Virus record (IMG/VR): IMGVR_UViG_3300030099_003199
Location: 32,001-96,000 of that record
Source of the DNA: a virus
Lineage: Duplodnaviria; Caudoviricetes
Length of the DNA stretch: 64,000 nucleotides
Direction: 5' to 3' (one strand)
The position numbers and the translations under genes were made by a program. Below the pieces are notes generated by a model. That model saw only the letters and a list, made by a program, of their open reading frames with translations, was not told where the DNA came from and ran no database searches. Every line of letters starts with the position of its first letter. Position 1 is the first letter of the stretch. This document shows, piece by piece, positions 44,301 to 49,800 of this stretch.

Positions 44301-46852
44301 ACATAACCTATATCTCTAGCTGTTGTTAATAGTTCATCTAACTCAGCTGGAGTAAAATCTCTACTAGACTGATCAATCACTAATTGTCTAACATAATTTT
44401 CTATTGCAAGATCAATTGATCCTCTTTGTACTATTGTACCATCTGGACTTACAATACCAACAATTTGATTTAATTTATCTTTTAGTTTATTAATATAAAT
44501 AAGTTGATTCTTTGATAAACCATCACTAACTGTAATATTTGTTAATCCTCTATATGATTCAACAAATTTTTGCCAAGCTAAAACTTTTTTTATGTAATCA
44601 GGTTTACCAAAATTATCTGGATCAGCTACATAATCTAAAAACTCATCTATTTGGTCAATGCTTTCTCTAACTAAATCAATATATACTTTGTCAATAGTTT
44701 CTGGATTTAAAAAACTATTTTCAATCATAGATCTAGACATGCTAATAGAACGTAATATTGCAGCTCTACCTTTATCCATTGATATTACACTTCTAGCATT
44801 TTTTATTGCTTGTTCTTTTGTAATTAAACCTTCTCTATAGTTTTTTAAAGCTTTAAATAATGAATCGTATAAAGGTCTATTTTCTTCTGATGCAAAGTCT
44901 AACACGTCTTCTGCATATTCATCAGAATCCCAATCTTCTATTGCTTCTGGATTCCTCATTTGATCCATAATTTGATCAACTACCATTTTATTTTCTTCAG
45001 CTATATCTAAAGGAATAATTTGATCAACTATGTATTGATTTTCTGAAGCTGCATGTAGTATTGTACCATCTAAAAATCCATCTTTTGTTCTATCTAAGTT
45101 TATAGTCATAGTTCCTTCATCAACCATAAATCCAAGATTTTCCAATATTCTTTTTGTTAAGGCCATTTGCAAACCTGTAAACATTTTTGCTGTTACAGTG
45201 GTTTGAATATTTTTCTTAACTAGTATACTATTAGCTCCTAAATCAAAATTTGTAGTATTATATTCACTTTTTGAAATTGATCCTGTATTAGCAAAATTTA
45301 TAATTTGCATATTTCCAAAAGGATCTACTCTTAATAAATCTATTCTTTGAGTCAAACCTGTTGCAGGATCTGATACAATAACATTAGGAAGAAATACAGA
45401 ACGGTCATCTCTCATACCTTCCATTCTTGCTAACATCATTTTATATACTTCTTCAAATTGTGAATCTATTTTTTCAGAATCAAAAGGAGCTCCTATTGAT
45501 AAACCATTAAAAATAGCAGTTGTACTTTCATCAAAAATTAAACTTTCTAAAGGATGATTTTCTACACCAAGAATAGAATTTTCTATATTTGGTAATACTT
45601 CTGCTGTATCAACATTAATAAATTGATCATTTTCTTTCTTTACTCTAGATGTAGCAAGTTGATCTATTTCAGTTTTTGAACTATATGCTTGATGAAAAAG
45701 TTGATCAACAATTTGTGTTTGTACGGTTGTAGCAGCTTGATTTTTTATTGTATCTAATATACTTTTTTGTTCTGGTGCTAATGAATATCTTAATTCTTCT
45801 AATGCTGTAGGATTTAATTCAAATGACAAGCTTTCTGTGTTTAACATTTTAACTACATCAGTAAGAGTCATGTTAGAATTTAAATCTTTAACTGTAAGTT
45901 TTTTACCTGTTAACGCACTATATAAAGATTTAACAACATCTGCAAACCAATTTAAAAATTCTCTAACAGCACGTAAAAATCCTATTTTAGGTTTGCCACT
46001 TTCTTTATTAAAATGTTTTGATAAAAGCTGTGTTACAAATTCTAATGCTGTATCTTTTGATTGAAAGCCTAATGCAGGATCATATACACCAGCTATTTCT
46101 TCTGCTAACTCACTATCTAACTCTAATCCTTCTACTAGTAAATTATCAAATAGTGCTCTGTTATCTAGATATAATGCATCTACAAAAGGATGCAACATTT
46201 CTTCAATAGCTGTTGCATTGGTAACTCTACCTTTTATTAAAACAGCTGTACCATTATAAAAGAATGAATTAACTTTATTCCAAGGCACATTTCTTTTTCT
46301 ATAATAAGGAATAGCATCATATATTGTTTTTGCTTGAGATGCCTCTAGTACAGTATATTTAACTTGTGGAAACATTTTAGTTAAATGATCTAACACTGGT
46401 AAAGACTTAGCAGAATCTTTTGATATATATGTGTTGCCATTAAGAACTGTATCATTTACAACAGCTCTAAACATATGTGCTTTTTTTGTTCCTTTAAATA
46501 TTATTGAATCTTGTTTAAAACCGTTAAACGTTAAATAATCTCTAATACGTTTATGTGTATCTCTTACTAAACTTTTATTAGTTTCTATAATAAAATAATC
46601 ATTACCTATTTTTTTAATAAAACCTTTTGACTGTAAATTTCTTAATAATACTTTACCTTCATTTTTAGCTTTAGCTTTTGTTAATAAAGCTTGTGCCCTA
46701 ATCATATTTTTAGCATCTATAACACTAGGAATAGTATCTGTTTTTTCTATTTTTTGATAATCAGATATAATAGAATCTACAGTATATGAACTAACATACT
46801 CTCCAAGCAATGCTTTGTATTCAGTTGTATTTTTATTGTAACAAGTAGCCAT
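41312..46852 (-). CDS. Giant virion cargo/ejection protein, 1846 aa
   Basis: Adjacent to the vRNAP gene; degenerate zincin-like EEMLH and nuclease-like RIDLL segments; hydrophobic C-terminal helices. Confidence 0.8.
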   Translation of the reverse strand: MATCYNKNTTEYKALLGEYVSSYTVDSIISDYQKIEKTDTIPSVIDAKNMIRAQALLTKAKAKNEGKVLLRNLQSKGFIKKIGNDYFIIETNKSLVRDTHKRIRDYLTFNGFKQDSIIFKGTKKAHMFRAVVNDTVLNGNTYISKDSAKSLPVLDHLTKMFPQVKYTVLEASQAKTIYDAIPYYRKRNVPWNKVNSFFYNGTAVLIKGRVTNATAIEEMLHPFVDALYLDNRALFDNLLVEGLELDSELAEEIAGVYDPALGFQSKDTALEFVTQLLSKHFNKESGKPKIGFLRAVREFLNWFADVVKSLYSALTGKKLTVKDLNSNMTLTDVVKMLNTESLSFELNPTALEELRYSLAPEQKSILDTIKNQAATTVQTQIVDQLFHQAYSSKTEIDQLATSRVKKENDQFINVDTAEVLPNIENSILGVENHPLESLIFDESTTAIFNGLSIGAPFDSEKIDSQFEEVYKMMLARMEGMRDDRSVFLPNVIVSDPATGLTQRIDLLRVDPFGNMQIINFANTGSISKSEYNTTNFDLGANSILVKKNIQTTVTAKMFTGLQMALTKRILENLGFMVDEGTMTINLDRTKDGFLDGTILHAASENQYIVDQIIPLDIAEENKMVVDQIMDQMRNPEAIEDWDSDEYAEDVLDFASEENRPLYDSLFKALKNYREGLITKEQAIKNARSVISMDKGRAAILRSISMSRSMIENSFLNPETIDKVYIDLVRESIDQIDEFLDYVADPDNFGKPDYIKKVLAWQKFVESYRGLTNITVSDGLSKNQLIYINKLKDKLNQIVGIVSPDGTIVQRGSIDLAIENYVRQLVIDQSSRDFTPAELDELLTTARDIGYVEYQTGDMATSRDTLLALMDKIFKRDRQRVLDKIQARAPRIKRAAMKLAKLTGSERIDYSFMIEFDENGEPTGRYVKKTSSAFYAELNRLKQPLINEDGSWKEFIDIENLEDATQEQINYNRKLMADRDAYFAFKRAENRGDDGYSDGDNFKYTDEFKRARSRFEIFVINANGGGFWTKKSTVSNKAYLRYLAKYYNTFGEEARIAKPVIDVNGNFTGQVYYVKNASYVKPEYKEINYNNPNWINDKWSKLQNPTTELEKAQSEYYNMYIDVFENELVNLIPENISMIGRLPTIEGRPTSKLKDKPNSVGSIFSKMSTKIRNYFSPSTVIKRAVRDEHGNIITDSLPLYYVGSIVQEKDIENAYNALDQIATLYNNAKTAEEKEKYRKQLKTQRGKIKSLESKPTARTLNLDLTESLIKFSAMAENYQIMSQSEDTFHAMIKVIENRQYTNSKGDIIIQDEEGKEVGKKGKVKGNLEANMTKRAKKWMKMVYYDNDNDTRTFFDKVSKGLISATSLAYVGFNVFGNLNNYVFGRVSNAIETAGGRFFSTKAMMKTTARFQRAMFDNLAGATKAATQRYRRYEDDQQKGKWNAVVMYFRMLDSKQDMRESQYKSENTSVRSAAKDMFTEGGSDNVIRFLRSGWDRFHEFGYIIQDAGEYNVQTKIGNAILESTTMKNSKTGETMSLWDALIWDNKALTMKVKDGFDKVIFYNQTKERNWDDNARYDLRNYIREVNKQVHGNYAYEDRMVMQSTAVGQLAAQFHKWVAPAIKARFRPEYFDENLGWMEGRYLTFWNFLGYAYKNLQDIGNIANNYKEFNGEKGQRKLQNVYRTMGEIGIIMTTVLLKMLLSDMMGDDDDEERGGTTRRDVDDSDSVLRKRLRNVFLYQLDRTHKDLVTFMPIPGTGGLTQLYQLFKSPIASTRTLGELGEALEYTVGTSLSYAFMDDESFMESKWVYQRPKARRGQLKLGKQWGDALPILYTINRWKSYDNVSDFFIK

Positions 46853-49800: not shown

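Follow-up and report, generated by a model that had tools for sequence, protein, structure and literature searches.

How podophages pack, order and deliver megadalton protein loads ahead of their DNA is an open question, and the locus described here bears on it. In a 64,000-nucleotide (nt) stretch of a Caudoviricetes genome (the window; bases 32001-96000 of the 114,846-nt virus record IMGVR_UViG_3300030099_003199), three long minus-strand genes lie in a head-to-tail row. Two consecutive ones encode cargo proteins of 5145 and 1846 amino acids (aa), each of which retains a single cysteine, one close to the C-terminus of the first protein and the other close to the N-terminus of the second. Why have these two residues been kept, and why at the ends which face each other? 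Drawing on comparative sequence analysis and on analogy with a solved cyanophage complex, we propose that the facing cysteines are kept for each other and probably form a head-to-tail, inter-chain disulfide between the two cargo proteins in the virion.

A gene junction with two facing cysteines

The junction and the genes around it comprise the following features, with the type of evidence in brackets.

46861..62298, minus strand: giant cargo protein of 5145 aa, fusion of a gp47-like and a gp50-like part (open reading frame (ORF) call, BLASTP, profile search, tblastn)
46873..46875, minus strand: TGT codon of Cys5142, residue 4 from the C-terminal end, KKCYLK before the stop (translation, cysteine count)
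46853..46860, minus strand: 8-nt spacer from the TAA stop of the giant gene to the next ATG; the two frames differ (sequence)
46841..46843, minus strand: TGT codon of Cys4 (MATCYNK) in the 1846-aa protein (translation, cysteine count)
41312..46852, minus strand: gp49-like cargo protein of 1846 aa with a single cysteine at residue 4 (BLASTP, profile search)
62301..63998, minus strand: upstream cysteine-free cargo protein, 565 aa visible, the gene being cut by the window end (ORF, cysteine count)

The interval 46841-46875 holds exactly the two cysteine codons, the TAA stop and the 8-nt spacer. A first-pass annotation of the window had described one terminal cysteine in each of the two large proteins and none in the upstream cargo protein. 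The script count is in exact agreement: the sole cysteine of the 5145-aa protein is residue 5142 (LKKCYLK at the C-terminus), that of the 1846-aa protein is residue 4, and no internal cysteine is present in either chain. In the whole genome the upstream cargo protein extends to 1121 aa and contains no cysteine. The frequency in the pair is far below that of the phage's own proteome, where 55 other ORFs of at least 150 aa contain 378 cysteines in 26,022 aa (1.45%). At this background 101.6 cysteines are expected in the 6991 aa of the two proteins versus 2 observed (Poisson P(≤2) = 4e-41), and the probability of finding two single cysteines both at most 5 residues from the facing ends is 2.6e-6.

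The nature of the two proteins emerges from comparison with the crassvirus crAss001. In the giant protein, residues 2168-2317 match crAss001 gp47 (BLASTP, E 2e-8) and residues 3785-4030 match gp50 (E 2e-14). An alignment profile of the polymerase part matches gp50 at 4e-25, with D340, D342 and D344 of the DxDxD motif invariant in that alignment, and tblastn matches the giant protein to annotated RNA polymerase (RNAP) genes in 78 phage records. Judged by these similarities, the 5145-aa gene is a gp47-like part fused to a gp50-like (polymerase) part. Its earlier description as an RNAP is therefore correct for the part carrying the DFDID motif and incomplete for the whole, which also includes the gp47-like part with its zincin-type motif. 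The profile of the 1846-aa protein matches crAss001 gp49 at 9.5e-51 and cr1_1 gp077 at 2.8e-41, and hhalign aligns the gp49-like part with the Intestiviridae fusions described below (probability 99.7, E 7.6e-26). By homology to crAss001 and phi14:2, both window proteins are most likely packed in the virion and injected. The main parts of the two proteins are listed here.

46864..47094, minus strand: C-terminal tail of roughly 77 aa in the giant protein; it follows an acidic linker and closes with the motif [FI][IL][DE]x[IL]KxCx[LI] (tail alignment)
45938..46852, minus strand: N-terminal domain of the 1846-aa protein, about residues 1-305 (conservation, AlphaFold2 model)
41315..43105, minus strand: conserved C-terminal domain of the gp49-like protein, residues 1250-1846, common to Crassvirales families (BLASTP, profiles, hhalign)
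55780..55794, minus strand: HEAFH zincin-type motif, residues 2169-2173, gp47-like part (aligns with HEAFH at 2157 of crAss001 gp47)
50632..50646, minus strand: DFDID motif, residues 3885-3889, polymerase part (crAss001 gp50 counterpart DFDVD at 1483)

Pfam and PHROGs searches assigned no family to the giant protein (searched in three pieces), the 1846-aa protein or the upstream cargo protein. Neither the polymerase part nor the 1846-aa protein nor a profile built from 27 sequences found a match in sequence searches of the PDB. Because of this last result, the link to the solved phi14:2 polymerase is indirect and runs via crAss001 gp50 and the Suoliviridae giant proteins.

Conservation of the pair and its loss on gene fusion

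Single-sequence and then alignment-based scans of IMG/VR retrieved 83 related loci at 30-96% identity. The start of the downstream gene is missing in four of them, which leaves 79 usable junctions, and both cysteines are kept in every one. The downstream cysteine occupies residue 4 in 61 junctions, residue 3 in 14 and residue 5 in 4; the upstream cysteine stands 2-5 residues from the end (3 in 55 junctions, 4 in 12, 5 in 7 and 2 in 5). Elsewhere in these proteins cysteine is absent from about 215,000 upstream residues and occurs twice in 150,892 downstream residues, both times in locus L074. Here (9983-15826) the two residues form a CxxC motif (FFCRECY) about 430 residues from the C-terminal end of the sole gp49-like protein among the 79 loci to have an internal cysteine. 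All five full-length homologues of the giant protein (4491-5442 aa) contain exactly one cysteine, 3-4 residues from the C-terminus; in five relatives the cargo protein encoded before the giant (1064-1142 aa) contains none. A single-sequence scan with the N-terminal 1500 aa of the giant protein found only 2 close loci.

Sequence around the upstream cysteine is otherwise poorly conserved. Over the last 100 residues of 61 aligned tails the mean identity is 23%, and the cysteine is the only column conserved at 90% or more. On the other side of the junction, C4 and N6 are invariant in alignments of 10 and of 61 gp49-like homologues. At the nucleotide level, TGC replaces TGT for the upstream cysteine in 5 of 67 loci and for the downstream cysteine in 1 of 67. 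Spacers range from -1 to 134 nt, and the two genes are out of frame at 27 of 67 junctions and in the same frame at 40.

Larger collections give a similar picture for the downstream protein. Among 5.8 billion proteins, 437 match the conserved C-terminal domain; of the 119 cluster representatives listed besides the query, 113 have a cysteine at residue 3-8 and 106 have exactly one cysteine in total. The six listed matches which lack it comprise five N-terminally cut proteins and P0060, whose N-terminal part is unrelated and which has no cysteine. Searching 1.84 billion representatives with a profile yielded 3104 relatives at E ≤ 0.001. In 98 of the best 150, the domain is preceded by 900 residues or more, and 94 of these 98 carry a cysteine in the first 10 residues, the four exceptions being P0060, P0213 and two all-in-one fusions. 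In the other 52 the preceding stretch is shorter than 900 aa; they are mostly fragments and were counted neither way (36 without cysteine, 10 with an N-terminal cysteine).

What happens to the pair when the genes are joined or divided differently? We compared 14 named crassvirus genomes from the Steigviridae, Intestiviridae and Suoliviridae (Crevaviridae and other families lie outside this comparison). In 13 of the 14, as in all 79 loci, the cysteines appear or vanish in pairs at the boundaries between modules. In crAss001 (Steigviridae) three separate genes encode the modules, with gp47 on the strand opposite gp50: gp47 (2341 aa) has one cysteine, third from the end, gp50 has cysteines at residues 5 and 1334 and ninth from the end, and gp49 has one at residue 5. 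In phi14:2, of the same family, the last residue of g067 is a cysteine, g066 has Cys3 and a cysteine second from the end, g065 has Cys3, and no further cysteine occurs in the 5398 aa of the three proteins, which the record notes place in virions. The gp47/gp50/gp49 set of crAss001 and the g067/g066/g065 set of phi14:2 are homologous modules which follow the same terminal-cysteine rule as the window. The difference is that the gp47-like and gp50-like modules form one protein in the window, so that one pair is present in place of two.

The two other families divide the modules in opposite ways. In Intestiviridae (p-crAssphage, crAss002, cr107_1, cr11_1, cr3_1) the gp47-like protein is separate while gp50 and gp49 are fused, and the pair is found at the gp47/gp50 split: a cysteine of the gp47-like protein lies 1-2 residues from its C-terminus and the fusion begins MSC, provided that in crAss002 an internal MSC is taken as the start, as in cr107_1. 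Cys3 is the only cysteine common to all four aligned fusions of this family. In Suoliviridae (cr56_1, cr1_1, cr55_1, cr118_1, cr109_1, cr114_1) gp47 and gp50 are fused, as in the window and its five full-length relatives; all of these have the pair only at the gp50/gp49 junction, and none has a cysteine at the fused gp47/gp50 boundary. Three all-in-one proteins, P0123 (4326 aa), P0216 (4452 aa) and P0262 (4928 aa), unite all three modules and have no terminal cysteine; their internal cysteines number 0, 3 and 2, none of them at a boundary. No relic cysteine was found at the fused boundaries of the Suoliviridae, Intestiviridae and all-in-one forms examined. The first-pass annotation had linked the two cysteines in an inter-protein disulfide chaining the cargo proteins. 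Two expectations which follow from that reading, conservation of the pair at homologous junctions (79 contigs and three named Crassvirales families) and its disappearance on fusion, are thus borne out, and the reading itself is partly supported.

Internal splits of the giant gene without a cysteine pair occur in L018, L047 and L064. In our reading they stem from frameshifts or assembly errors and do not test the rule, because the frames overlap or have no start codon and because L019, the near-identical twin of L018, is intact. The upstream gene of L028 (3288 aa) is a shorter whole gene, not a split one.

The extent of cysteine removal differs between phages. The purge is complete in phi14:2, from seawater, and in the clade of the window, several close homologues of which are labelled 'tara'; it is looser in gut phages, with 0-7 internal cysteines per protein. 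This difference would fit with mispaired bonds being more of a risk in oxygenated water, small as the sample is.

A proposed disulfide link and the competing accounts

The closest structural precedent comes from cyanophage A4. In the cryo-electron microscopy structure of its pre-ejectosome, Cys1715 of gp27 is disulfide-bonded to Cys5 of gp26, and a cleft in gp26 receives the C-terminal helix of gp27 (accessible part of PMC12002296; PDB 9K2V/9K3A). In the Anabaena phage A-4L record, the only cysteine of gp27 (1717 aa) is third from the end and the only cysteine of gp26 (1114 aa) is residue 5. As in the window, two consecutive genes encode large ejection proteins with sole, facing terminal cysteines; the accessible part of PMC12002296 does not use the word cysteine, and it neither remarks that these are the only cysteines nor generalises from them. 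In A4 the pair is part of a pentameric ring, and no virion RNA polymerase is seen in A4 in the accessible account.

Work on crAss001 bears on the homologous cargo. In the part of PMC10172136 available to us, gp47, gp49 and gp50 are detected in virions by mass spectrometry, are not resolved in the maps and are treated as cargo which needs partial unfolding to pass the tail. The same account reports disulfides in the particles, among tail and portal-vertex proteins, and estimates about 6 copies of each polymerase-associated protein per particle. The word cysteine occurs nowhere in PMC10172136, and our literature searches found no publication describing terminal cysteine pairs in crassvirus cargo.

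Cysteine suppression is itself documented in Schitoviridae. N4 gp50 and DEV gp71, gp72 and gp73 have near-zero cysteine versus a proteome background of 0.865%, which the accessible part of PMC11445570 explains by passage through the disulfide-forming periplasm; the cysteine-free N4 virion RNAP, mentioned in the first-pass annotation, is supported by this source. Like the window, these phages combine a giant injected virion polymerase and its partners with suppressed cysteine, but a terminal pair is absent from the N4 and DEV proteins. The enzymes also differ in kind: N4 has a T7-like single-subunit polymerase, crassviruses an unrelated two-barrel one with a DxDxD motif.

On the reading we favour, the C-terminal tail of the giant gp47+gp50-like protein would dock non-covalently on the N-terminal domain of the gp49-like protein, and Cys5142 and Cys4 would then join the two chains by a disulfide when the particle meets oxidising conditions. 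The linked gene products would act like one polypeptide. Because the link would mimic a single chain in this way, a peptide bond (after fusion) and a cysteine pair (after splitting) could interchange at the same boundaries. Other cysteines would be purged to prevent wrong disulfides in the particle or the host periplasm. A terminal link would also leave the unfolded chain unbranched, unlike an internal one, which fits the purge. A disulfide is the most likely chemistry because the A4 pair is one.

Structure prediction supports this picture weakly. A co-fold of the C-terminal 100 aa of the giant protein and the N-terminal 400 aa of its partner (59- and 60-row alignments) scored 0.41 (runs of 0.44, 0.28 and 0.41); the best of three controls reached 0.00. 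The runs share at least 35% of contacts, and the predicted local distance difference test (pLDDT) value of the partner is at least 58. The mark used was reached by 58 of 80 solved complexes and by 2 of 110 mismatched pairs; at scores of 0.60 or less it was reached by only 7 of the 80 solved complexes and by both passing mismatches. In the AlphaFold2 model of the N-terminal domain (mean pLDDT 64) the 10-residue block means range from 59 to 92 over residues 1-300, two low blocks at 141-160 stand apart, and Cys4 is predicted to lie in coil before the first helix. A fold search of this model against the PDB gave no match at E ≤ 0.001. The best rows were zincin proteases (E 0.24-0.65, template-modelling score about 0.23), which we do not count as a finding.

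Several observations weigh against a disulfide between the two proteins. The bond in crassviruses is inferred, and the A4 precedent is an analogy, since gp27 and gp26 have no sequence or fold likeness to the window proteins (BLASTP E > 0.09). The co-fold is weak and gives no interface. Assembly in a reducing cytoplasm and the anoxic habitat of gut crassviruses mean that the bond would need to form late or, in the gut, might not form at all. Among the relatives, the C-terminal cysteine of crAss001 gp50 stands as far as 9 residues from the end and is accompanied by the internal Cys1334, and P0213 (1516 aa) and P0060 (2573 aa, on an 8.5-kb contig) have no N-terminal cysteine. An extra protein of 833 aa between the gp50-like and gp49-like genes of cr116_1 ends in a cysteine and has its first cysteine at residue 124, none being N-terminal, so that one C-terminal cysteine is without a visible partner. 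Finally, many of the 79 loci are close relatives and not independent trials, wide as their spread of identity nonetheless is, and independent split or fusion events are few because gene layout follows family.

Two alternatives, both improbable in our view, retain a protein-level role for the cysteines. In the first, the facing residues would bind a shared metal ion in a zinc or iron clasp, perhaps with several copies contributing thiols, and no disulfide would form. The comparative pattern fits any direct neighbourhood of the two cysteines, the copy number estimated for crAss001 (about 6, PMC10172136) would allow several pairs to meet, and a histidine adjoins the cysteine in some relatives (KLCHLK, MACHNRN). 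Yet one thiol per chain makes a poor site, no second ligand is conserved beside either cysteine, and the sole solved example of such a pair, as described in the accessible part of PMC12002296, is a disulfide. In the second alternative each cysteine would pair elsewhere, in a like-with-like dimer or with another cargo, capsid or portal protein. This would accommodate cr116_1, where two C-terminal cysteines stand against one N-terminal cysteine, as well as the cysteine-containing tails of a further Intestiviridae cargo-block protein, for which no partner is obvious. It does not account for the paired gain and loss at module boundaries, for the absence of both cysteines from the all-in-one fusions, or for crAss001 gp47 and gp50, which keep the pair despite lying on opposite strands.

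Less probable still is that the cysteines are modification sites (acylation, prenylation or another thiol adduct) which anchor the protein ends to a membrane or carrier. The terminal CYLK resembles a CaaX box and an N-terminal cysteine is reminiscent of lipoproteins. A CaaX box needs its cysteine fixed at the fourth position from the end, whereas the distance varies from 2 to 5 in the 79 loci and from 1 to 9 in the named phages. No signal peptide or lipobox precedes Cys4, the cysteine following the start methionine at residue 3-5, and the loss of both cysteines on fusion would be left unexplained. The host is also most likely a bacterium of the Bacteroidota, and we know of no CaaX prenyl-transferase in bacteria. 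A membrane helix in the 1846-aa protein was considered and rejected, as no 19-residue stretch has a Kyte-Doolittle mean of 1.6 or more.

A last account, scarcely credible, treats the pattern as a by-product of DNA-level or translational processes (coupling signals, fusion by read-through or frameshift, relics of the gene split) with no role in the protein: 40 of the 67 junctions are in the same frame and both codons are mostly TGT, but the 27 out-of-frame junctions include that of the window, spacers vary from -1 to 134 nt (131 nt with a hairpin in p-crAssphage), crAss001 gp47 and gp50 lie on opposite strands, and the 1-9 residues beyond each cysteine are too short for intein halves. The out-of-frame junctions led us to reject read-through or frameshift fusion. 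A split intein or trans-splicing was likewise rejected, with 3 residues after Cys5142, 3 before Cys4 and no domain in Pfam. Each rival accounts for less of the split and fused pattern than a disulfide does, and the by-product account is contradicted by spacers, frames and strands.

If the disulfide exists, what would it do? A speculative and tentative proposal is that the link orders or couples the exit of the cargo via the tail, and that the reducing cytoplasm then cuts it. A broader version, which we regard as rather doubtful, would make the cargo a redox-gated pseudo-polyprotein in which each boundary is either a peptide bond or a terminal disulfide. Some 5,400-7,000 residues would then exit as one unbranched thread, other cysteines being purged since only terminal links keep the unfolded chain linear enough for the tail channel. 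Cytoplasmic reduction would separate the modules and time early transcription, and the arrangement would have arisen independently in cyanophage A4.

Other features of the cargo block and significance

Several further observations concern the gp49-like family and the cargo blocks of relatives. In the N-terminal domain of the 1846-aa protein the residues E217-E218-x-x-H221-P222 (46189-46204 of the window, minus strand; residues 217-222) are invariant. Some gp49-like homologues (P0028, P0069, P0074, P0079, P0104, P0116 and others) contain Pfam domains in their variable part, namely PF18760, PF06414 with PF13671, PF01476 (which we take to be LysM) and PF12705; judging from these domains, the family may serve as a carrier for varied injected domains.

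In Intestiviridae, another cargo-block protein ends in a basic, cysteine-containing tail, [YF][RK]CGG followed by K/R, or CGGG followed by K/R in cr11_1. Examples are YRCGGHRR and FRCGGKKKIA, both directly before the stop, and no partner cysteine is evident. These tails occur in L085 (3902-4696 and 4817-7390), L086 (5394-7067), L087 (4701-7079), L112 (3568-4374) and L114 (3914-4813). The C-terminus of p-crAssphage gp47 reads QSCR. In cr116_1 (L119, 20849-24077) a 215-aa gene with 6 cysteines lies beside the extra 833-aa protein, between the gp50-like and gp49-like genes. The late and cargo genes of cr56_1, cr109_1 and cr114_1 (L111, L116 and L118) contain 5-70 in-frame stops under table 11; these phages therefore translate a stop codon as sense, a form of recoding known from crassviruses.

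Cysteine content varies strongly along the genome of the window. Directly upstream of the giant gene lies a cysteine-free run of proteins of 1383, 968 and 1121 aa, among which stands another 1121-aa protein with 6 cysteines. Outside the window two large proteins are rich in cysteine: 7024-12429 (minus strand; 1802 aa, 81 cysteines) and 108221-114844 (minus strand; more than 2208 aa, 45 cysteines). Within the window, 34911-37388 (minus strand) encodes an 825-aa protein in which 44 residues (5.3%) are cysteines. It starts like a signal peptide and has at its C-terminus a sorting domain for type IX secretion (Por_Secre_tail, E 1.3e-12), and counterparts with 40-53 cysteines lie downstream in L002, L004, L010 and L037. 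Its sequence points to a phage-encoded secreted protein, and the sorting domain makes a Bacteroidota host most likely. Two more genes of the window are a spore-photoproduct-lyase-like gene (27199-28035, plus strand; PF20903, E 4e-18) and a fragment of a B12-type ribonucleotide reductase (39204-41063, plus strand; PF21995, PF02867).

What would a disulfide between cargo ends mean for these phages? If true, covalent joining of the cargo ends would set both the stoichiometry and the exit order of the cargo, and it would explain why fused and split layouts are freely swapped in Crassvirales. It would supply a second reason for cysteine purging besides the avoidance of periplasmic oxidation, and infection by these phages, the most abundant in the human gut, would start with a redox switch. 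Should the pseudo-polyprotein proposal also be true, terminal linkage with removal of all other cysteines would amount to a general design rule for injected phage proteins.

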